Shown: positions 4,226 through 28,255, numbered from the stretch's first letter. The stretch is 64,000 nucleotides of DNA from Polyangiales bacterium (GCA_038231275.1 JBBRLQ010000003.1:484800-548799), one strand, 5' to 3'. The notes: generated by a model not told the origin, from the letters alone. Made by a program: numbers and translations.

Positions 4226-5203
4226 ATGCGCTTTGCTTCTTTTCTCTCGCTCACGGTCACGCTCGGTGTCGGCCTAGGCGCGAGCGCTGGCGCGGCGCAC
4301 GCGGCCGATCGGCACAAGACGCGCGTGTGGATCGAAGCGCGGCCCTGGCCGTGCGCGGATTTCGTCGCGCCGCTCGCGCAACAGATCGCCTTGGCGTGCG
4401 ACGCCGCGGGGGGAACTTGCGGCGTTGCGTCGGACGCGCAGGCGGCCGATGAGCGCATCGTGCTCAAGTGCCAAGAAGCCGAGGGACAGTGGATCCTCGA
4501 GGGCGAGAGCGCGTCCGGGGCGCGCCTCTGGTCGGTGGGTCTCTTCGGAGACGAGGACGAACGACTCCGAAGGGCGGGCCTTTGGGTGGCGCGGGTCGAC
4601 GGCGGCGGCCCGGGGATTCCGGCCTCCGTTCCGAACGTCACCGTCGCGGCGCCGGCGTCCAAGACTCCCACTGCGCCGCGCGCGCCCGCGGTCGACCCGA
4701 AACCCGAGAATCCCGACGAGACCCCGGGCGCGACCCCGGATCGCCGTGGCGGCCTCTCCTTGAGCGCGCACGGCGCGTACGAGACGACCTCGGACGGCTC
4801 TCCGCTCGTGGGGGCGCGCGCGATTTTCGGTGCGCGCATCGCCGGAGGGACGCGCGGCACGCTGGCCCTCGACGGCGTCGCTCCAACCCAGACGAACGTG
4901 CGCCCGTTCTCGCTGCTTCGCGCCGGTCTCGGCGCCGCGTGGGGCGCGCCGTGGATGGACGACGTCCTTGGCGCGGCGGTCGAAGTCGGCGCCGCCGCGG
5001 CATCGAGCTACCGCTTCGGCGGAACGAAGGGCGCCCCCTACGGCGCCGTCTCGCTCACCGCACAGTACCCCAACGCGACGCTGCGCCCGTTCGTGACGGC
5101 GAGCCTCTCGGTGTTCGCGATGAAGGACGCCGGCTTCGAGTCGGTCGGCTCTCTTGCCCCGATGGTCGGGCTCGACGTCGGCCTCGCGTGGAGCGCGTGG
5201 TGA
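4226..5203 (+). CDS. Secreted/outer-membrane hypothetical protein, first gene of an ECF operon
   Basis: Signal peptide MRFASFLSL...AHA, Pro-rich linker, amphipathic beta-strand C-terminus ending GLAWSAW; RBS GGAG. Confidence 0.65.
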   Translation: MRFASFLSLTVTLGVGLGASAGAAHAADRHKTRVWIEARPWPCADFVAPLAQQIALACDAAGGTCGVASDAQAADERIVLKCQEAEGQWILEGESASGARLWSVGLFGDEDERLRRAGLWVARVDGGGPGIPASVPNVTVAAPASKTPTAPRAPAVDPKPENPDETPGATPDRRGGLSLSAHGAYETTSDGSPLVGARAIFGARIAGGTRGTLALDGVAPTQTNVRPFSLLRAGLGAAWGAPWMDDVLGAAVEVGAAAASSYRFGGTKGAPYGAVSLTAQYPNATLRPFVTASLSVFAMKDAGFESVGSLAPMVGLDVGLAWSAW

Positions 5204-5209
5204 ACTGAC

Positions 5210-5815
5210 ATGACCGTGGCGCTCAGCGGGACCAATCGCGAAGCGGTGCGCGCGCTCTCCGACGAGCGCGCGGCGACGCCCATGGTCCCGTGGCCCGAGC
5301 TGGTTCGTATCGTCACGCGCCAGATGGAGAGCATCCTCGGCTCCGCGGGGCACGCGCGCGATCGTGACGATCTCACCCAGGCCGCGCTCGAGCAGATCGT
5401 CCGGGCGCTTGATCGCTTCGAGGGGCGCGCGGAGCTGACCACGTTCACGTACCGCGTGTGCACGCGCGTCGCCTTGAACCATTGGCGCGGGTGGCGGCGG
5501 TGGCTGCGACGATTTCAGCTGGGGATCGACGCGACCGCCGAGCGCGTGGCCGGAGGCGCGGACACGTCGACCCGCGCCCTCGAGCGCGAGCGCGCGAGGG
5601 CGCTTCACCGCGCGCTGGAGCGAATGAACCCCGTACGGAGGCTGGTCGTGACGTTGTCGGACCTGGAAGAACTCGCCGGCGCGCAAGTGGCCGAGATCCT
5701 CGAGTGCCCCGAAGCCACCGTTCGCTCGCGCCTGCGCCGCGGTCGGGAGGAGCTCTACGGGCTCCTCGCGCGGGACCCGATCTTCCGCGACGAGATCGAA
5801 GGGGGGACACGATGA
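5210..5815 (+). CDS. ECF RNA polymerase sigma-70 factor
   Basis: DDLTQAA...LDRFEGRAELTTFTYRV (region 2); LSDLEEL...VAEILECPEATVRSRLRRGR (region 4). Confidence 0.9.
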   Translation: MTVALSGTNREAVRALSDERAATPMVPWPELVRIVTRQMESILGSAGHARDRDDLTQAALEQIVRALDRFEGRAELTTFTYRVCTRVALNHWRGWRRWLRRFQLGIDATAERVAGGADTSTRALERERARALHRALERMNPVRRLVVTLSDLEELAGAQVAEILECPEATVRSRLRRGREELYGLLARDPIFRDEIEGGTR

Positions 5816-7868: not shown

Positions 7869-8549
7869 TTGAACCCAACGCAAGCCCTCGTCCTCGGCGT
7901 GCTGGCGATCGACGGGTGCTCGCCGGCCGCGGCACCACCTGCAGCTCCAGTGACCGCGCCGGCCGCGACAACTCCCGCAGCAGCACCGGTCGCGACGGTA
8001 CCGTCCGTCAAGACGCCCGCGCCGGAGCCGATCGATTGGCCGCTGCCTCCAGGCTGGCGGCGCGAGGTCATCCCGTTCCCGCTCGATTTCGCGCCGGAGC
8101 TTTCGTACCGCGGCGCGGAGATCATCCGCTTCGCGCCGCGTTTCTTCGACGCGTCGGCGCCGACGTATTTCTCCTACGCGTTCGCGTGGGCGCTCCAGGG
8201 GAGGCCGGCCCTCGACGCCGCCGCGCTGCAGGCGGATCTCGCGCGCTACTTCGCGGGACTCTGTAAGGAGGTCGGCGGCTCGAAGTTCTCGTTCGACCCC
8301 GACCGCTTTCGCGCGCGGCTCACGCCGTCGGTGTCGCCGCGCGCGACTGCCCGGGCGCTCGTGGGCACGGTCGACGCGTACGATCCGTTCGGCGACGGGC
8401 GCGCGCTCACGCTGAACGTTCGGATCGAGATCTGGGACTGCCCTGCGCCGGGCCCGCGCGTCGCGGCGTTCGCGGCGTCGCCGGCGGCGGCGAAGGAGCC
8501 CATCTGGCGTGAGCTCGAAGCGCGCCTCGCCGAGCTGCGGTGCAAGTGA
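7869..8549 (+). CDS. Hypothetical secreted protein
   Basis: Pro/Ala linker, then WRREVIPFPLDFAPELSYRGAEIIRFAPRFF...YFSYAFAW, a conserved-looking domain. Confidence 0.7.
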   Translation: MNPTQALVLGVLAIDGCSPAAAPPAAPVTAPAATTPAAAPVATVPSVKTPAPEPIDWPLPPGWRREVIPFPLDFAPELSYRGAEIIRFAPRFFDASAPTYFSYAFAWALQGRPALDAAALQADLARYFAGLCKEVGGSKFSFDPDRFRARLTPSVSPRATARALVGTVDAYDPFGDGRALTLNVRIEIWDCPAPGPRVAAFAASPAAAKEPIWRELEARLAELRCK

Positions 8550-8591
8550 GGCCTCACCACAGGCGCTTTTTTTAGGTGCGATTGAGAGAAC

Positions 8592-9149
8592 TCAGCTCGC
8601 CACCTCGTAAAAGAGCGGCGCGCGGCGGGCGCAGAAGGTCGAGATGACCTTCTGCTGCTCGTCGCTGAGCCCTTCGAATTCCACGCCGAGGCCGGGGGGC
8701 GACGTGTCCGACTTGTTGCGGTGCCACTTGACCTCACCGTGCGCGTGGATCGTGCCGTTGGGCAGCGCGAAGTCGAGCGCGACCTCGCTACCGACCGGGA
8801 TGTTTCGGTAGGTCTCGACGAATACGCCGCCCTCGCTCACGTCTCCGCTGAGGCCAGAGAAGAAGTGCGACTCGCTGGCGAGATCGATCTCGACGCTGAG
8901 CGCGATGCGCGGATGCTTGCGGCGGTTGTCGTGGGGCGCGGCCACGGCGTGCGCCGGCTCCGGCAGGATCTCGTCGAGCGCGTGGAAGACCTGAGCGACG
9001 ATTTCGCCGACGATGTCTTCGGGGCGAACCTCGACCGTCTCGGGAGTGTGGGGAGCCGCCTCCACCGTGGGGCGCGATTGCGCGGGCGTGGCCATTGCGC
9101 GGCTCTTGGTGCGGTCCTTCTTCCGTAGTTTGCGGGTCTTCTTCGTCAT
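8592..9149 (-). CDS. PilZ-domain protein (myxobacterial TIGR02266 type)
   Basis: RRKHPR (RxxxR) and DVSEGG (DxSxxG) motifs; SESHFFSG...GLGVEF. Confidence 0.85.
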   Translation of the reverse strand: MTKKTRKLRKKDRTKSRAMATPAQSRPTVEAAPHTPETVEVRPEDIVGEIVAQVFHALDEILPEPAHAVAAPHDNRRKHPRIALSVEIDLASESHFFSGLSGDVSEGGVFVETYRNIPVGSEVALDFALPNGTIHAHGEVKWHRNKSDTSPPGLGVEFEGLSDEQQKVISTFCARRAPLFYEVAS

Positions 9150-9220
9150 ACACGCGCACAAAGCAAGAACCACGCGCACGCATTACGGTTCAGCCCGCTT
9201 TCTACGCGTAGGCTGGCTGC

Positions 9221-11323
9221 GTGGCAAACCAGGGGATTTACCGAGAAGGCGGCGGCGGGGGTGGGCTGCCGCTGCCGCGCGCGCACCTGCTTGCGTTCAC
9301 GGTCGGCGTCTGCGCGCTCGCGCTCGGCGCCGTCGTTCTCTCGCCAGCGCTCCTCGCCCTGCTGGGCGGCTCGGCGGCGGGCGCGTGGCGCATCTTCAGG
9401 AACGGCGGCGTCGCGATGTACTCGCTCGTCGCGCTGAACCTGCTCGCGCCGGTCGTGATCGCCGGGCTCGGCGCCTTCGTCCTGCGTGGAAAGCGCGCGC
9501 CGGCGGGGCTCCTGTTCGTCTTGGCGTCTCTGCCCTTCGCGCTCGCGCTCCTCGGCGCGTGGATGGGCCAGCGCCAGGTCATGCGCGCGCTATCGGGAGG
9601 GTCGATCGATCCCGAGCAGAGCGCGCGCATCCTCGCAGAGGGGATCGCCGAGACGATGGCGGCGGACATGTTCGGCGGCTTCGTCGCGTGCGGCGCGGCG
9701 CTCGCGGCTGCCTTCGCGTCGGCCGCGGCGGTCGCGTCGATCGACGTTGGGACTGCGGCGCGCGGCGGCGCGAGACCCGCGGCGACAGGAGCGCTCGGCG
9801 CCGGCGTCGCGGGCGGCCTCTGGCTCGTGGCGACGTTGGGCCTTGGCGCGGCGCGCATGCGCGCGGCGGGCGGCGTGGCCTTTTTGCCGGCGCTGCCGCT
9901 CCTCGTCCTGGTGCCATCGGCGGTGCTGGCCGGGCGCGCTTCCTCGGTCTTGAGGGGGTGGCACGATCGCGGCGAGGCTTCGCGCGTCGCCGGCGCGCTG
10001 CTCGTCGCCGCGCTCGCTGCGCTGCTCGCGGTCCTCGCGCTCCAGCGCGCCGTCGAGTCGAGCTTCGCGTCGAAGGCGCTCGAGGCCATCGCCGGCGAGA
10101 CGGTGGACGAGTCGCAGCGGGCGCGCATCCTCGTGTACGCGCTCGACGCGGGCCGCCTCGCCTCCGCCGCGTACGCGCTCCACTTCGCGCTCGGCGCGGC
10201 GACCTTCGGGCTTGCCCTCGCGCCTGCCCTTGGCAACGCGCGCAACCCGGCGACGCCGAGCGTCGTGATCGCCGCGGTGGTCGGCCTCCTCTTGATCGCG
10301 TGCACAGTGAGCCTCGCGCGATCGCGCAACGCCGCGCCGCACGCGATGGCGGCGCGCGCCACGGACCCGAGCCCCGCCGGCGTGACCTTGCCGGTCGTCG
10401 TCGATGCGTTCTCGCACAAGGGCGCGGGCGCCGGATACGAGGGCGCGCGTCTGGTCCTCCGGCGCGACGGCACCGGCGACGGCACAATCGACAGCGGCTG
10501 CGCCCAGCCCAAGCTCACGGTCTACGCCGATCGCGCCGCCACCGTCGCGTCGCTCCGCGCGCGCCTGGGGGCGCCATCGGATTCGTCGCCGTGCCCCCGC
10601 CGCCTCACCTTCGTGGCCAAGCGCGCGCACCCGCCGGAGCTCGAGGCGCGCCTCGGCGAGCTCACGGGGTACCTGGGCACGACCGCCTACTTCACGGCGA
10701 CGCTCGACGACGACCGCACCGCGGGCCCCGCGAGGCCGTACGATCTGGTGATGCGCGTGACGTCCGTGTCGGACGACACGCTGGAGATCGACGGTGCGCG
10801 CGTCACGTTGCCGCTCGTGGGGGGCGCGTCGCCCGGAGGGCCGGGCGCCACGCGCGTCCGCTACCTCTTTCGCCCCACGGACACGATCGGTCACGTGCTC
10901 GACACGATCGTGGCGGTCGAGACCGCATACGCGTCACACCTTTCCACGTGGGAGCTCGAACGCTCGATCGACGACGGCGCGCGGCCACCGCCGCCCCCGC
11001 CCACCACCGATGAGCATGGGATCACGGTCGCCGGCCGCCTGCCTCCCGAGGTGATCGAGCGCATCGTTCGCAAGGATCGCGGGCACGTGCGCGCCTGCTA
11101 CGAGGCCGGGCTCTTCCGGAACCCGACGCTCCACGGGCGCGTGGTCGTGAAATTCGTCATCGGACGCAGCGGCGCCGTGACGAGCGCCACCGACGACGGC
11201 TCCGACCTGCCCGATCGCGGCGTCGTCGCGTGCGTACTCTCCGCGTTCTCGCGGCTCTCGTTCCCGCAACCCGAGGCCGGCGTGGTCACCGTGACCTACG
11301 CCGTGGTCCTCGCGCCCGAGTAG
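9221..11323 (+). CDS. Polytopic membrane protein with C-terminal AgmX/PglI (TonB-C-like) domain
   Basis: Many TM segments in the N-terminal half; Pro run; GRLPPEVIERIVR...VRACYEAGL.RNPTLHGRVVVKFVI...CV...LSFPQPEAGVVTVTY. Confidence 0.75.
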   Translation: MANQGIYREGGGGGGLPLPRAHLLAFTVGVCALALGAVVLSPALLALLGGSAAGAWRIFRNGGVAMYSLVALNLLAPVVIAGLGAFVLRGKRAPAGLLFVLASLPFALALLGAWMGQRQVMRALSGGSIDPEQSARILAEGIAETMAADMFGGFVACGAALAAAFASAAAVASIDVGTAARGGARPAATGALGAGVAGGLWLVATLGLGAARMRAAGGVAFLPALPLLVLVPSAVLAGRASSVLRGWHDRGEASRVAGALLVAALAALLAVLALQRAVESSFASKALEAIAGETVDESQRARILVYALDAGRLASAAYALHFALGAATFGLALAPALGNARNPATPSVVIAAVVGLLLIACTVSLARSRNAAPHAMAARATDPSPAGVTLPVVVDAFSHKGAGAGYEGARLVLRRDGTGDGTIDSGCAQPKLTVYADRAATVASLRARLGAPSDSSPCPRRLTFVAKRAHPPELEARLGELTGYLGTTAYFTATLDDDRTAGPARPYDLVMRVTSVSDDTLEIDGARVTLPLVGGASPGGPGATRVRYLFRPTDTIGHVLDTIVAVETAYASHLSTWELERSIDDGARPPPPPPTTDEHGITVAGRLPPEVIERIVRKDRGHVRACYEAGLFRNPTLHGRVVVKFVIGRSGAVTSATDDGSDLPDRGVVACVLSAFSRLSFPQPEAGVVTVTYAVVLAPE

Positions 11324-24584: not shown

Positions 24585-24958
24585 TGACGTCGCCCGCGAA
24601 TCTCGACGAGATCTTCGGCGCCCTCGCAGACCCCACGCGTCGCGCGATCGTGGCGCGGCTCGCCGGCGGGGAGGCCACGGTTCTCGAGCTCGCCGCGCCG
24701 TTCGACATCAGCCTCCCGGCGATCTCGCGGCACCTCAAGGTGCTCGAGAACGCGGGGCTCATCTCGCGCGGACGCGACGCGCAGAGACGGCCGTGCCGGC
24801 TCGAGGCGGACGCGCTCGACGAGATCAACCGATGGACGCAGCACACGAAGCGCGCGTGGGAGCAGCGCTTCGACGAGCTCGACGAGTACTTGAAGAAGCA
24901 ACAGCCGACCCCACCCAAGAAAGAAGAGAAGAAGAGCCATGGTCGCAAAAAGCCCTGA
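24584..24958 (+). CDS. ArsR/SmtB family transcriptional regulator
   Basis: FGALADPTRRAIVARL...ISLPAISRHLKVLENAGLISRGRDAQRRPC. Confidence 0.9.
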   Translation: MTSPANLDEIFGALADPTRRAIVARLAGGEATVLELAAPFDISLPAISRHLKVLENAGLISRGRDAQRRPCRLEADALDEINRWTQHTKRAWEQRFDELDEYLKKQQPTPPKKEEKKSHGRKKP

Positions 24959-25445
24959 CACGACGTGGTCGCTGGATCGCGAGATCGTCCTGTCGCGCGT
25001 GTTCGAGGCGCCGCGTGCGCTCGTCTACGACGCGTGGACGCAGCCCGAGCACCTCACGAAGTGGTTCTGTCCGAAGGGCTTCACGACGACGACGCGCGAG
25101 ATCGACGCACGCGTCGGCGGGAAGTGGCGCTTCGACATGGTCGCCAACGATGGCAACATGATGAAGGTGCCAACCGGCACGATCTTCGGCAATCGCATCG
25201 TGTTCCTCGAGATGCGCGCGCCCGAGCTGCTCGTGTTCGATCACGGCCAGGACAAGGACGACGACGAGACGCGCTTCCGCGTGACCGTCACGTTCGACGA
25301 GCAGGCCGACAAGAAGACGGTCGTGACGATGCGTCAGCTCCACCCCACCAAGGAGCAGCGCGCAGCCGGCATCGGCTTCGGCGCGGTCGAGATCGGCTAC
25401 ACGACGATCGACAGCCTCGCCGACTACCTGCGCAAGATCCGCTGA
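24939..25445 (+). CDS. SRPBCC (AHSA1/START-like) domain protein
   Basis: DREIVLSRVFEAPRALVYDAWT.PEHL.KW; DARVGGKWRF; typical ArsR-SRPBCC pair. Confidence 0.9.
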   Translation: MVAKSPDTTWSLDREIVLSRVFEAPRALVYDAWTQPEHLTKWFCPKGFTTTTREIDARVGGKWRFDMVANDGNMMKVPTGTIFGNRIVFLEMRAPELLVFDHGQDKDDDETRFRVTVTFDEQADKKTVVTMRQLHPTKEQRAAGIGFGAVEIGYTTIDSLADYLRKIR

Positions 25446-25453
25446 GCGCGCGC

Positions 25454-25903
25454 TCACTCCCCGAAGCTCGACGCTCCGGCGGCCCCCGCGACAAAGGAAG
25501 CTTCGTTCGATTCGAGGTCCCATGGCTCCGACCCGTCGGGCGGCTGCTGGTACGACGTGAAGCGGACGATGTAGCGACGCCGTTCGGGAGGGAACGCGTA
25601 GAAGCGGTCGAGCTGGATCGACGTCTCGATCGACTCGCCCGGCCCGAGGCGCACGAAACCCTCCGGACCGGGAGGCCCTCGCTTCACGAGCGGCCCGGTG
25701 TAACCGACCCTGGGCCCGCCCGCCGGCGTGATCGCGAAGAGGTCGTTCTCGAGCGCGCCGTCGAGGGCCGCTTGCGAGCGGTCGACGAAGATCGGGGCTG
25801 CCGAACGGTTCACGATCGAAATCGTCGCGCGAACGCCGGCGTCGGTCGCGATCGACAGCGTCGCGCACGCGCTGGGGGCCATGGCACGGGGTGCGTCCGT
25901 CAT
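25454..25903 (-). CDS. Stand-alone M35 propeptide-like protein; putative protease inhibitor/immunity protein
   Basis: LENDLF.I...VGYTGPLVKRGPPGPEGFVRLGPGESIETSIQLDRFYAF...LESN resembles the M35 prodomain; ATGA overlap with the protease stop. Confidence 0.65.
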   Translation of the reverse strand: MTDAPRAMAPSACATLSIATDAGVRATISIVNRSAAPIFVDRSQAALDGALENDLFAITPAGGPRVGYTGPLVKRGPPGPEGFVRLGPGESIETSIQLDRFYAFPPERRRYIVRFTSYQQPPDGSEPWDLESNEASFVAGAAGASSFGE

Positions 25904-26631
25904 TTGGCGTTCTCGATGTAGTACTCGAAGTTGTCGGCGTTGGTGATGGCGTCCTCGGGCCTCGTCTTGGCGAGCCGCAAGGCGTTCTCGATGCCGTACC
26001 CCTTGTCGCCCGTCGCGCCTATGTCGTTGAAGTGGGACATCTCGTGGGCCAAGGTTCCGGCCTTCGAGTCCTTTCCGATCGACGCGGCCTTCTTGAACAT
26101 GTCGCCCAGGAAGATCGTGTGGCGCTGGTCGCCCGGGTGGACGTACGCGAACAAGTTCGAGTCGGGGTTGGTCGAGTCTCGGAAGTGGCTGAACGTCGGA
26201 TCGTCGGTCAGCTCCTTGTTGAGCGCCAGCTCGTGCTCGACGCGGGCCTGGATGATCGCGCGGCGCGGCTCGGTCGGCGGTCCGAAGAAGCGCGCGAAGT
26301 TGGCCTTCGCGAGGACGTCCCAGCGCGCGAGCTCCGCTTTCTTCTCGAGCAAGAGGGCCCGCTCGTCGCCCAGCGCCTGCTTGAGCGCGGCGTGGTGCGC
26401 GGCCACCCACGGGGAAGGCGGCGTCGGCAGCTCGATGTCTCCTGTCTTGAAGGCGGGGCCGAGCCCCCGGCTCGCAGCCCCCAAGAGCGCGCCGATCGCG
26501 CCGATCGAGCTGCGAAAGAGATCGACGGATGGCGCGGCGCGGGGACCCCGCAGCACGCCGGGGCCGATGTGCACCCCGCGGTTGCCGACGTGGACGAAGG
26601 CGGCCGCGTTCTTCAGGGCGGCGACGCTCAC
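25900..26631 (-). CDS. M35 (aspzincin, peptidyl-Lys-type) zinc metalloendopeptidase
   Basis: FAYVHP, DSKAGTLAHEMSHF (HExxH), GATGDKGYG (GTxDxxYG-like), NADNFEYY; no signal peptide. Confidence 0.85.
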   Translation of the reverse strand: MSVAALKNAAAFVHVGNRGVHIGPGVLRGPRAAPSVDLFRSSIGAIGALLGAASRGLGPAFKTGDIELPTPPSPWVAAHHAALKQALGDERALLLEKKAELARWDVLAKANFARFFGPPTEPRRAIIQARVEHELALNKELTDDPTFSHFRDSTNPDSNLFAYVHPGDQRHTIFLGDMFKKAASIGKDSKAGTLAHEMSHFNDIGATGDKGYGIENALRLAKTRPEDAITNADNFEYYIENAK

Positions 26632-26635
26632 CCCG

Positions 26636-27226
26636 TCACCTTCGCGCCCTTTGCCCCGGCATCGGGACGTACGACGCGGGGAGGGGCGGCGGCAGCGTGC
26701 GCGAGAGGTCAACGTCCGGCGGGGGCTCGGAGATTTGTCGCGGCACGGGGCGAGGGACGATCCCGCTCGGCGCGGCGCTCGCCCGCGCGGAGTCGAGGAG
26801 GCGCGAGAACGCAGGGTACATTTCGGTGTAGCGATCCTTGGAACAGGTGGCCGTCACGTTGAGGATCACCGGCCCGTCTTGCTCGTCGATCTCGATGAAC
26901 GTGCACGTCTGCACGATCATCCCGTCGTCGCCGGACCGCTCGATCGCGATCTCCACTCGAGACATCCCCTGCGCGTCCGAGGCGCAATGGCTGAGGACGC
27001 GGAGCCCGCGGCGGTCGCGCAGATCCGCGATCTGTTGGAGCGCGAGCGAGTGCACGGTGTCTCCCGGGCGGCGCGGCTCGCTCACGAGGACGACGCTCGC
27101 AGGCGTGCCACCGCCCGGGGCGGGCGGCTCGCTGAGGGTCACGATGGTCCGGCTGGTCCAGTCGGGCGGCGGCTCGAAGTCGGCGGCGCGCAGCGCGCGC
27201 GCAAGGACGTCCGTGGCGGTAGGCAT
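26636..27226 (-). CDS. DcrB/DUF1795-like (Mog1/PsbP fold) protein; putative T6SS effector adaptor
   Basis: FEPPPDWTSRTIVTL...ASVVLVSE...IVQ...LNVTATC...YPAFSRLLDS; RBS GAGGAG. Confidence 0.6.
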   Translation of the reverse strand: MPTATDVLARALRAADFEPPPDWTSRTIVTLSEPPAPGGGTPASVVLVSEPRRPGDTVHSLALQQIADLRDRRGLRVLSHCASDAQGMSRVEIAIERSGDDGMIVQTCTFIEIDEQDGPVILNVTATCSKDRYTEMYPAFSRLLDSARASAAPSGIVPRPVPRQISEPPPDVDLSRTLPPPLPASYVPMPGQRARR

Positions 27227-27379
27227 GTTTGGTATTTGCTCCTCACGCTTGAGACGCCCGCCGCGCGCGCCGAGTAGCAACAAAACGAGCTCGGCAGCAA
27301 CCGGCCGATTCGATGGATCATTTCGTCGTGAGGGGACCCTCGGTTGCAACCCCGGGCACCCCCGCTATGTTCGCCGGAC

Positions 27380-28255
27380 GTGAACGGCGCCCGACTCTCC
27401 CAAGCCTTTCGCCGGATCCTGCCCGAGGAAGATCCGCGTCTCGACGAGACGCTCGCACGTATCGTGTCCGCCGCGCGTGAGGCCTGGCCGGCGATCGACG
27501 TCGCCGCCGACGACTTCGTCGCGCACCTCGCTCGTCACGTTGCAAAAGAGGAGGAGCCGTTCGAGGCGCTCGAGGAGGTCCGCGCCGGCGACCTCTGGCT
27601 CGCGTGCGCATGTGCCGGAGGGGACGACGCGGCGATCTCCGCGTTCACGAAGACCTACCTCGATCCGATCTTTCCACTGCCGCGAGACCTGGCGCGACTC
27701 TCGGGCGACGTGAAGCAGCTCACGTCGATGAAGCTCCTCGTGGGCGAAGGCGAGAGGGGCCGGAGGATCGCCGAATACTCCGGCCGCGGCGACCTCGGCA
27801 GCTGGACCAGCGTAGTCGCGCTGCGGATCGCGCTCAGTCTCCTCCGCTCGAAGAAGCGCGAGGTCGCCTTGGACGAGGAGCGTGTCTTCACGCGGAGTGC
27901 GGGGGAGGGCCACGCCGACGCGGAGCTCGCACACCTCAAGAAGCACTATCGGGTCGAGTTCGCTGAGGCCTTCCAGGCCGCGCTCGCCACCCTGACGCCA
28001 CGCGACCGCAACGTCTTGCGCCAGCACCACGTCGACGGGCTCACGATGGAAGAGATCGCGCGCATCTACCGGGTCCATCGGATCACGGTGGTGCGTTGGA
28101 TCGAGAGCGCGCGCGAGGAGATCGCCGCGCAGACGCGCAAGAGCATGATCGCCCGCCTTCGCGTCCCCAAAGCCGAGGTCGAGAGCATCCTTCGGATGAT
28201 CCGCAGCCAGGTCGATCTCAGCCTGCGCAAGTACCTGCCGAAGTCGGGGCCCTAG
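27380..28255 (+). CDS. Myxococcales-type ECF sigma factor (TIGR03001-like)
   Basis: AREAWP; DLWLACACAGGD; RIAEYSGRGDLGSW; LKKHYRVEF; LTPRDRNVLRQH.VDGLT; SQVDLSL. Confidence 0.85.
   Translation: MNGARLSQAFRRILPEEDPRLDETLARIVSAAREAWPAIDVAADDFVAHLARHVAKEEEPFEALEEVRAGDLWLACACAGGDDAAISAFTKTYLDPIFPLPRDLARLSGDVKQLTSMKLLVGEGERGRRIAEYSGRGDLGSWTSVVALRIALSLLRSKKREVALDEERVFTRSAGEGHADAELAHLKKHYRVEFAEAFQAALATLTPRDRNVLRQHHVDGLTMEEIARIYRVHRITVVRWIESAREEIAAQTRKSMIARLRVPKAEVESILRMIRSQVDLSLRKYLPKSGP

Follow-up and report, generated by a model that had tools for sequence, protein, structure and literature searches.

A candidate M35 protease toxin of the type VI secretion kind with a putative propeptide-derived immunity protein at an orphan locus of a Polyangiales bacterium

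Introduction

The zymogen of AsaP1, an M35 protease of Aeromonas salmonicida with solved structures (PDB 2x3a, 2x3b, 2x3c), is one secreted chain in which signal peptide, propeptide and protease follow each other. Here, we describe a three-gene locus at positions 25,454-27,226 of a 64,000-nucleotide stretch from a Polyangiales bacterium (GCA_038231275.1 JBBRLQ010000003.1:484800-548799; this whole stretch is called the window below) that contains relatives of both parts of this zymogen in a different arrangement. P0002, the middle protein, resembles the catalytic domain of AsaP1 and P0003, the last one, its propeptide; unlike in AsaP1, however, the two are encoded by separate genes, the propeptide-like gene lies downstream, signal peptides are missing and the protease lacks Cys. 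The first gene encodes P0001, a protein related to chaperones of type VI secretion systems (T6SS). We consider it fairly likely (we estimate a probability of roughly 0.72) that the three genes form a single operon for a T6SS-type, contact-dependent protease toxin module with propeptide-derived immunity.

The protease is also comparable to Lys-N of Grifola frondosa (GfMEP; 1g12), whose HExxH motif, Asp ligand of the GTxDxxYG motif and Asp/Glu pair of the NADNxEY motif are kept in P0002. Lys-N is secreted and disulfide-bonded, whereas P0002 is Cys-free and has an extra helical segment at residues 75-135.

T6SS M35 effectors with immunity proteins have already been published, and the first-pass annotation of this locus overrated its novelty. 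As far as the accessible portions of the sources go, VgrG2b-PA0261 of Pseudomonas aeruginosa is a T6SS metalloprotease effector labelled M35 with an immunity protein, and the Escherichia coli protein M35-PAR is a split version of the VgrG2b type with an immunity gene of its own (PMC10673891). T6EC12 of Methylocaldum, which carries PF14521, is toxic in the E. coli cytoplasm, in the periplasm and in yeast; the adjacent immunity protein T6IC12 rescues this toxicity, was modelled over the catalytic cleft, and contrasts with the VgrG2b-type immunity protein, which is called 'totally different' (bioRxiv 10.64898/2026.09.28.754971). The present locus shares with these pairs a metalloprotease toxin assigned to the T6SS, present as VgrG fusion or as cargo, and an adjacent immunity gene; it differs in that none of the pairs, in the portions seen, has a DUF1795 adaptor. 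In those same portions of PMC10673891 and bioRxiv 10.64898/2026.09.28.754971, the words 'propeptide', 'prodomain' and 'zymogen' do not occur, and a literature search returned no link between an M35 propeptide and a T6SS immunity protein, which is no proof of absence given that most subscription journals and supplements fell outside it. T6IC12 itself may belong to the P0003 family.

Two further systems are informative. In Streptococcus pyogenes, a small gene next to the protease gene speB, and transcribed together with it, encodes Spi, an inhibitor in the cytoplasm, which has been termed 'a propeptide analogue' of SpeB (PMC2873492, citing Kagawa 2005, as far as the accessible portion shows); the staphopain-staphostatin pairs are similar by function. 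SpeB differs, however, in being a Sec-secreted cysteine protease of a Gram-positive organism that keeps a propeptide of its own, and Spi guards the producer against premature activation rather than conferring immunity to an injected toxin. The Eag chaperones, represented by EagT6-Tse6 (6xrf, 1tu1) and SciW-Rhs1 (6xrb, 6xrr), are matched by P0001 in fold and profile, and the P0001 gene likewise directly precedes that of the presumed effector. Known Eag clients carry a prePAAR motif, transmembrane helices and a PAAR domain. P0002 has none of these in recognisable form, and P0001 has a 45-residue, Pro-rich tail.

Results

A leaderless aspzincin followed by a separate gene

Open reading frame (ORF) calls gave three closely packed minus-strand genes, in the 5'-to-3' order P0001, P0002, P0003:

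26636-27226, minus strand: P0001, 196 aa, divergent DUF1795/DcrB (Eag-type) protein; candidate adaptor/chaperone for P0002
25900-26631, minus strand: P0002, 243 aa, start codon GTG, Aspzincin_M35 metalloprotease without leader or Cys; candidate cargo toxin of the T6SS
25454-25903, minus strand: P0003, 149 aa, no leader, stand-alone M35 zymogen propeptide homologue (beta-sandwich); candidate cytoplasmic immunity protein/inhibitor

All three ORFs lie where the first-pass annotation had put them, with the 4-nt gap and the ATGA overlap it had described: P0001 and P0002 are spaced by four nucleotides (TGA cggg GTG), and the ATG of P0003 overlaps the TGA of P0002. The Shine-Dalgarno-like run AAGGTG precedes the GTG start of P0002. 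GC content at third codon positions (GC3) agrees with the annotated frames, and the GTG start is supported because GC3 amounts to 0.89 over P0002 residues 1-74. A more upstream start at TTG-26712 was considered and rejected, as the extension has a GC3 of 0.70 and a second-position GC content of 0.85, so that the frame is not coding there.

P0002 residues 109-240 match Aspzincin_M35 (PF14521) with E=1.2e-24 and 87.8 bits, compared to a Pfam cut-off of 30, and a PDB search retrieved M35 enzymes of known structure, namely AsaP1 (E=6e-20) and GfMEP (E=3e-17). Its main elements are the following:

26410-26631, minus strand: residues 1-74, N-terminal leader; putative adaptor-binding/loading region, coding by its GC3
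26032-26046, minus strand: HEMSH, residues 196-200 with His196, Glu197 and His200; zinc-binding/catalytic motif
25993-26019, minus strand: GATGDKGYG, residues 205-213; GTxDxxYG motif of aspzincins, containing Tyr212 and the third zinc ligand, Asp209; aligned to AsaP1 and GfMEP
25918-25941, minus strand: NADNFEYY, residues 231-238; Asp233 and Glu236 align with Asp154 and Glu157 of GfMEP

These three motifs had been singled out by the first-pass annotation, along with the lack of a signal peptide, of Cys and of a prodomain, and every one of these observations stands: the protein contains no Cys and no signal peptide, a propeptide was detected neither by Pfam nor by our propeptide hidden Markov model (HMM), and export signals are absent from all three proteins of the locus. 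His196, Glu197, His200, Asp209, Tyr212, Gly213 and Asp233 are invariant in 25 relatives, with Glu236 kept in at least 90% of them. Asp233 and Glu236 are presumably the residues that bind Lys in the S1' pocket. If the pocket is acidic, P0002 would be expected to cleave on the N-terminal side of Lys.

The helical segment at residues 75-135 is common only to T6SS-type relatives. Upstream of it, the leader contains the sequence AALKNAAAFVH, in which the A-A...H spacing of the prePAAR motif (AARxxDxxxH) is kept and its R and D are lost, and a Gly-rich, weakly hydrophobic segment (residues 38-58; peak hydropathy 1.42 over 15 residues). By eye alone, this leader resembles the linkers of two PAAR-M35 proteins (P0161, P0166) and the N-termini of prePAAR clients; sequence comparison yielded no significant similarity to prePAAR clients, and the resemblance has to be regarded as unproven since the searches gave no significant match.

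P0003 is homologous to the AsaP1 propeptide

P0003 falls into no Pfam or NCBIfam family. On its own, it matches the AsaP1 zymogen (2x3a) over zymogen residues 29-126 (E=8e-4), and a profile of 60 stand-alone P0003 relatives aligns with AsaP1 residues 31-149 at E=2.5e-17. The pattern VGYTGPLVKRGPPGPEGFVRLGPGES...LDRFYAF, in which the first-pass annotation had seen an M35 propeptide, is present, and the homology is borne out by both sequence and fold. An AlphaFold2 model of P0003 is a beta-sandwich (predicted local distance difference test, pLDDT, 83), for which Foldseek returned chains of AsaP1 as the only strong PDB matches (E=1.5e-7 to 4e-6; template-modelling score, TM, 0.60-0.68, with 0.67 at E=1.5e-7), the next match following at E=0.024. 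Across the 64-kb window, the propeptide HMM matches P0003 alone. The arrangement typical of secreted M35 enzymes, with the propeptide N-terminal in the same chain, is not found here; P0003 is a propeptide homologue and not a propeptide, because it has an ORF of its own, which lies downstream of that for the protease and overlaps it in ATGA.

In the alignment with AsaP1, VGYTGPLVKRGPP of P0003 lies over VSYEGALIKRAAP, so that Lys74 pairs with AsaP1 Lys85, which we take to be the residue filling the S1' pocket in the zymogen structure. Lys74 is part of the following element:

25667-25702, minus strand: P0003 loop residues 68-79 (YTGPLVKRGPPG) with Lys74 (25682-25684) and Arg75; predicted active-site plug

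Seven positions (N32, F56, Y68, G70, K74, Y102 and S132) are each kept in 92-99% of 130 stand-alone relatives; for the loop residues the values are 92% (K74, Y68 and G70) and 85% (R75).

The family is sizeable. Searching 1.84 billion representatives with a HMMER profile built from P0003 and its paralogue P0005 (see below) yielded 709 matches at E<=1e-3, 151 of them at E<=1e-10. Among 150 matches listed out of the 709, 129 measure at most 200 aa, six measure 201-300 aa and 15 are longer. Pfam was run on 27 of these 150, namely all 21 above 200 aa and six short ones. Seven of the 27 are Aspzincin_M35 proteins: the propeptide match is N-terminal of the catalytic domain in six, as in a zymogen, and C-terminal of it in the seventh, P0095. 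Four carry fn3, and none of the six short ones has any family. A crude test for leaders on 131 stand-alone members classed 80 as leaderless, 44 as having a hydrophobic leader and seven as unclear; P0003 and P0005 are both leaderless, and a propeptide-like copy from Parasulfuritortus has a lipoprotein-like leader. This variation fits immunity proteins that are matched to the compartment of their toxin.

Other searches returned little. A word-indexed homologue search with P0003 found a single 97%-identical copy; the database protein P0009 (142 aa) is 97% identical to P0003; tblastn against plasmids gave no match; and the neighbours of P0003 in the ESM Atlas have no Pfam family in common, two of the top three being named 'hypothetical protein'.

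Several small deletions (window 25453-25483, 20 nt in total in the alignment) affect the 3' end of the P0003 gene in a strain variant, represented by runs X2 and X3, in agreement with the 142-aa protein P0009. The tail of P0003 is modelled at low pLDDT, and it seems dispensable.

The modelled complex is reminiscent of the zymogen

We modelled P0002 residues 70-243 together with P0003 in three runs, alongside three controls. The complex scored an ipSAE of 0.92 (0.91, 0.92 and 0.93 in the individual runs), as compared to 0.00 for the best of the three controls; the ipSAE mark applied is reached by 58 of 80 solved complexes and by 2 of 110 mismatched pairs. The partner has a pLDDT of at least 85, and at least 97% of the contacts agree between runs.

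Such a model had been proposed by the first-pass annotation, and in the predicted complex the P0003 loop 68-79 does cover the zinc site. It rests on the edge strand 159-167 of the protease, on H196, E197 and H200, and on residues 208-213 and 232-233. K74 is modelled in contact with residues 161-163, T193, H196 and E197, and L72 with E197, H200, D209 and A232. Judging by this interface, P0003 would inhibit P0002.

Relatives of the protease include probable T6SS effectors

The same genome encodes a paralogous pair. On contig C25, the VgrG protein P0004 (Phage_GPD, Phage_base_V, Gp5_trimer_C) ends in an Aspzincin_M35 domain, and its C-terminal 165 residues share 47% identity with residues 75-243 of P0002; P0002 residues 1-74 do not align with it. 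Directly after P0004 comes P0005, which shares 34% identity with P0003 (E=2e-22). The gene for a T6SS sheath protein is located 22 kb from this pair, and the genome does have a T6SS on contig C25. More broadly, the protease domain is fused to VgrG, PAAR or Rhs in P0002 relatives: among the matches listed, 17 of 52 non-self relatives carry PAAR and 3 of 52 Gp5_trimer_C in the same chain.

We gathered 80 genome loci using a protease alignment (A4) and scanned them with our own HMMs, calling a locus toxin-type when it had no in-frame propeptide. In 61 of the 80, propeptide and protease share a frame, as is classical for zymogens; one further locus (L099) is of zymogen type and split by a frame change, and another (L079) is cut by a contig end. 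The remaining 17 are toxin-type. Fifteen were classed with Pfam as follows:

PAAR-M35, eight loci: L034, L037, L039, L042, L043, L046, L049, L050
VgrG-M35, three loci: L035, L036, L038
DUF6443/Rhs-type giant ending in M35, one locus: L047
Short cargo forms behind DUF4123 adaptors, two loci: L040, L041
Truncated, one locus: L069

L044 and L045 are possibly Rhs-tip orphans, judging by a motif we take to be diagnostic; neither protein has an Rhs hit. Several toxin-type loci lie among genes for ClpV, VipA/B, Hcp, TssE/F or contractile tubes, and their hosts belong to seven phyla (Acidobacteriota, Myxococcota, Thermodesulfobacteriota, Cyanobacteriota, Planctomycetota, Bacteroidota and Pseudomonadota). 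The neighbourhood survey of homologues suggested by the first-pass annotation has thus turned up VgrG, PAAR and Rhs fusions or DUF4123 adaptors in the clade of this protease.

A separate propeptide-like ORF directly follows the protease in 14 of the 17 toxin-type loci (E<=1e-5). L044 has a weak candidate at this position (E=0.03), and the propeptide HMM scan found no such downstream ORF in L045 and L047. Regarding the earlier proposal that the zymogen had been 'split and reordered', the downstream position of the propeptide-like gene here and in those 14 loci speaks for it, but the reordering is not universal, L007 having the gene upstream. The order in L007 (G031:C35, 60-2486), from a genome of the same family, is VgrG fragment, propeptide-like ORF with a membrane anchor at its N-terminus, and M35 gene (separate, 195 aa); a TAG is found within the wider match.

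Some loci have additional features. The array in the window's own genome (L005; G000 contig C25:52000-68000, 7128-13068) consists of the 'evolved' VgrG P0004, the propeptide-like P0005 and P0006, a VgrG-Peptidase_M91 protein, with a DUF1795 gene, P0007 (611 aa, no family) and the beta-helix protein P0008 upstream; contig C25 holds six of the genome's nine VgrG matches. In L036 (a Myxococcales metagenome-assembled genome, MAG; 7950-10799), the VgrG after the VgrG-M35/propeptide-like pair ends in Pfam ATLF, a lethal-factor-type metalloprotease fold, at the place where the window's genome has the M91-type end. In L038 (a Geobacter MAG; 4488-5773), two tandem propeptide-like genes come after VgrG-M35, and then a stand-alone PAAR gene. 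Nine zymogen loci (L054, L055, L072, L083, L088, L091, L096, L098, L109) have an extra stand-alone propeptide-like ORF, about 100-300 bp downstream of the zymogen gene in eight; in L109, the copy comes after a second zymogen gene and is encoded on the opposite strand. By analogy to Spi and SpeB, these extra copies may be inhibitors that protect the producer from its secreted M35 proteases.

Descent, distribution and selection

We computed a quick maximum-likelihood tree of 96 propeptide-type domains, with a midpoint root and support given solely by the Shimodaira-Hasegawa-like approximate likelihood ratio test (SH-aLRT); a length filter left out L041 and L042, and the row of L099 is the frameshifted zymogen-type one. 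A branch with an SH-aLRT support of 99 separates all 15 toxin-linked rows (12 loci, the window and C25) from 71 zymogen propeptides. The long-branch row of L109 joins the toxin-linked side, and seven of the nine extra stand-alone copies near ordinary zymogens form a group of their own (support 92). The topology fits one old split, handed on together with the toxin ever since, and a second birth that was independent of it, with a direction of change that we infer. In the window's phylum, the propeptide-like gene is rare and patchily distributed; 3 of 61 close relatives have it, as do 8 of 401 sampled genomes.

Contigs from two runs of another study (about 97-98% identical, depth 2-4) provided the strain variant, which differs from the window as follows:

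P0002: 10 synonymous and 2 non-synonymous changes, 528 of 732 bases covered
P0003: 6 synonymous changes and 4 non-synonymous ones, three of these close to the termini, 450 of 450 bases covered
P0001: 1 synonymous and 4 non-synonymous changes, 424 of 591 bases covered

The protease is clearly under purifying selection.

P0001 has the fold of Eag chaperones

P0001 matches DUF1795 paralogues, both from the genome that encodes it and from another of the genus, at E=1e-15 to 3e-25, and the relatives collected in alignment A5 at up to E=1.7e-27. Of the 18 members of A5, 17 match PF08786 at E<=0.01 (best 5.8e-24), and the A5 profile matches EagT6 (6xrf, 1tu1; E=2.8e-17) and SciW (E=4e-9). With an AlphaFold2 model of pLDDT 82 as query, Foldseek ranked EagT6 (6xrf, 1tu1) first (E=1.7e-8 to 1.5e-7; target-normalised TM 0.68-0.72), followed by SciW and DcrB. 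A word-indexed homologue search with P0001 returned P0001 itself and nothing else. The initial description of this ORF as DcrB/DUF1795-like therefore holds by relatives and predicted fold, while the single sequence stays below the Pfam cut-off; it is on account of these relatives and this fold, and not of its own Pfam score, that we assign P0001 to DUF1795.

The 45-residue tail of P0001 ends in VPMPGQRARR. A PAAR hidden in this tail was considered and rejected, VPMPGxRxRR being conserved among the DUF1795 paralogues. In the broader form [VIMF]PMP[GE]xR..RR, the motif concludes a Pro-rich tail in 11 of the 18 A5 DUF1795 proteins of the genus and family, including P0001 (e.g. L021:1489-2079, L114:1480-2073, L022:1495-2049) and is absent from the solved Eag proteins.

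Two DUF1795 paralogues in the genome adjoin textbook clients, which start with AARxGDxVGSH and continue with long stretches of hydrophobic residues and PAAR. At 40% identity, the closest relative of P0001 comes from the same-genus genome G001, where it is followed, in L114 (G001:C89, 1480-3571), by a beta-helix protein and then by a fragment of a calpain-like (Peptidase_C2) effector; PAAR was not detected in the 164 residues of this effector that are covered. The N-terminus of the calpain-like effector (…RSLGSAGALVGAGA…) is faintly like the Gly-rich leader of P0002 (E=0.01 over 15 residues).

Flanks and control region

The gene upstream of P0001 is divergent and separated from it by a short gap:

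27227-27343, no strand assigned: divergent intergenic region of 117 bp between P0001 and the sigma-70-family gene; operon promoter region presumed from the gene layout
27344-28255, plus strand: sigma-70-family gene

No sigma-70 consensus or promoter-like site was found in a scan of 25200-27600, which includes this gap; the promoter of a three-gene operon is therefore placed at 27227-27343 by inference from the layout. The same scan gave a single terminator-like site upstream of P0001, at chance level. Downstream lie, in convergent orientation, an ArsR-type repressor gene and an AHSA1-domain gene. Genes for a Ser/Thr kinase and a histidine kinase are located farther out in the flanks, which consist of ordinary regulators. 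The early view of an orphan module was correct in that the contig lacks VgrG and the flanks are regulatory.

The AHSA1-domain gene (24887-25452) is 94% identical at the DNA level to genome G001, whereas the rest of 23000-30000 matches that genome at about 70% or not at all. The AHSA1 match ends at 25452, two bases before the P0003 stop codon, and the G001 contig ends there as well; this end may be a recombination or insertion boundary.

Discussion

What might this locus do? Our data are best read as a T6SS-type pair of M35 effector and immunity protein, the latter exapted from a zymogen propeptide, and both encoded in an orphan cassette next to an Eag-fold protein. P0002 would then be a Lys-directed aspzincin zinc protease that does without the signal peptide, the disulfides and the N-terminal propeptide of secreted M35 zymogens, and P0003 the propeptide, now on a gene of its own, translationally coupled through the ATGA overlap and free of export signals. 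In the producer's cytoplasm, the P0003 beta-sandwich would dock on the protease and lay its loop Y68-G79 (with Lys74 and Arg75) across the zinc site, as the covalent propeptide of AsaP1 does, thereby blocking substrates; P0003 would thus act as immunity protein, and perhaps also as folding aid. P0001 might bind the 74-residue leader of P0002 and hand the toxin over to a T6SS spike whose gene is at another place in the genome, allowing secretion from this orphan locus. In a neighbouring cell without P0003, the injected protease would cut cytoplasmic proteins and thus be toxic.

Several observations weigh against this reading. Neither VgrG nor PAAR is encoded on the window's contig (C3; nine VgrG and three PAAR matches genome-wide), and the locus as such has no link to vgrG, hcp, PAAR or a T6SS cluster. 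Pfam detected no PAAR, MIX or other known loading domain in P0002, and P0002 residues 1-74, compared with three same-genus genomes, gave nothing below E=0.1. The high complex score may reflect model memory, because the structure of the AsaP1 zymogen is solved; what the model says is that the pair resembles a zymogen, which is not the same as binding, and a propeptide homologue could be a folding helper instead of, or besides, an inhibitor. P0001 taken alone reaches 15.4 bits (E=0.02) with PF08786/DcrB, below the cut-off of 27.2, and its one synonymous and four non-synonymous changes may point to relaxed constraint, the numbers being tiny and the depth 2-4. Solved Eag chaperones bind the prePAAR/transmembrane regions of PAAR effectors (cf. 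the titles of their PDB entries), and P0002 is no client with prePAAR, transmembrane helices and PAAR; among the same-strand ORFs scanned, DUF1795 occurs in none of the 17 related toxin loci. The weak link is thus the presumed function of P0001 as adaptor, since its client lacks PAAR and none of these relatives comes with DUF1795. Adjacency and fold leave us close to even odds that P0001 serves P0002 as adaptor.

Part of this evidence would also suit a cassette that has been stranded. The pair would then be a genuine toxin and inhibitor, whose delivery was lost together with the PAAR of an ancestral Eag-dependent prePAAR-PAAR-M35 effector, and which has been retained because toxin and antidote act in an addiction-like way or as a recombination reservoir for VgrG and PAAR genes. 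The N-terminus of P0002, similar to a worn prePAAR with a short Gly-rich segment and to the PAAR-to-M35 linkers of P0161 and P0166, is what such a history might leave behind, and the missing PAAR and VgrG, the substitutions in P0001 and the intact prePAAR-PAAR effectors beside the two other DUF1795 paralogues point the same way. However, the catalytic motifs of P0002 are all intact and its substitutions (10 synonymous, 2 non-synonymous) speak of purifying selection. Nor does the lack of PAAR bar delivery, because short PAAR-less M35 cargo effectors with DUF4123 adaptors sit inside T6SS clusters; moreover, the closest P0001 relative also precedes a protease effector fragment without PAAR in the 164 residues at hand. 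We therefore consider a loss of delivery unlikely.

Two other explanations seem less likely still. P0002 and P0003 may be a housekeeping pair, an endogenous cytoplasmic protease with its dedicated inhibitor or folding helper as in Bacillus, serving to control proteolysis within the producing cell and never secreted at all, in line with the absence of export signals from all three proteins and with the regulators next door. The nearest Pfam-bearing ESM Atlas cluster of P0003 is BsuPI, an intracellular proteinase inhibitor (0.88, a lead only), and 3isy (Bacillus subtilis Ipi) is a weak fold match (E=0.035). Yet wherever the context of a close relative of the catalytic domain is known, it is one of VgrG, PAAR, Rhs or T6SS, the product of the upstream gene is folded like a T6SS effector chaperone, and the patchy distribution (3 of 61 relatives, 8 of 401 genomes) is that of mobile toxins, which together make a housekeeping role very improbable. 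Alternatively, P0003 may chiefly be a folding chaperone acting in trans, with immunity provided from elsewhere or not needed. Many protease propeptides double as folding catalysts, and P0003 is homologous to a propeptide. However, its best-conserved surface is the Lys74-Arg75 loop, which is modelled over the zinc site, and this suggests an inhibitor rather than just a foldase. Besides, the VgrG-M35 gene of L038 is followed by two tandem copies, as immunity genes often are, and the leader-bearing variants beside some toxins fit compartment-matched immunity. We regard a predominant foldase role as about as improbable as a housekeeping one.

Taking the T6SS-type effector/immunity reading further, we see evenly balanced chances for a joint picture in which immunity proteins were born from the toxin's own propeptide, plug aspzincins with a Lys-Arg loop, spread, and arose a second time. 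The P0003 family would then be large (709 representatives, most of the 150 listed measuring 120-190 aa) and without Pfam match (none in the six stand-alone members scanned). It would have spread with the M35 toxin over at least seven phyla and over VgrG, PAAR, Rhs, extracellular contractile injection system (eCIS)-like, DUF4123-cargo and DUF1795-cargo chassis, and its second origin would be the extra stand-alone copies beside ordinary secreted zymogens. In the same picture, an Eag-fold chaperone would serve an effector that has no PAAR by way of its worn, prePAAR-like leader, and such a mode of loading would be undescribed so far.

What would follow from this? An Eag-fold protein with a PAAR-less client would widen the role supposed for this chaperone family. 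If true, the relationship would also provide a sequence model with which hundreds of small 'hypothetical' genes could be annotated as protease inhibitors and M35 toxins next to them flagged, and it would point to natural, tight, genetically encoded inhibitors of Lys-N-type proteases with a possible use in proteomics. Recent reports, in their accessible portions, describe the neutralisation of T6SS M35 effectors only as steric. A Lys plug in the S1' pocket would offer a mechanistic hypothesis for immunity to these very toxic effectors. Finally, if true, the locus would illustrate a simple route from a secreted zymogen to an injectable toxin with ready-made immunity, namely by cutting off the propeptide as a gene of its own.

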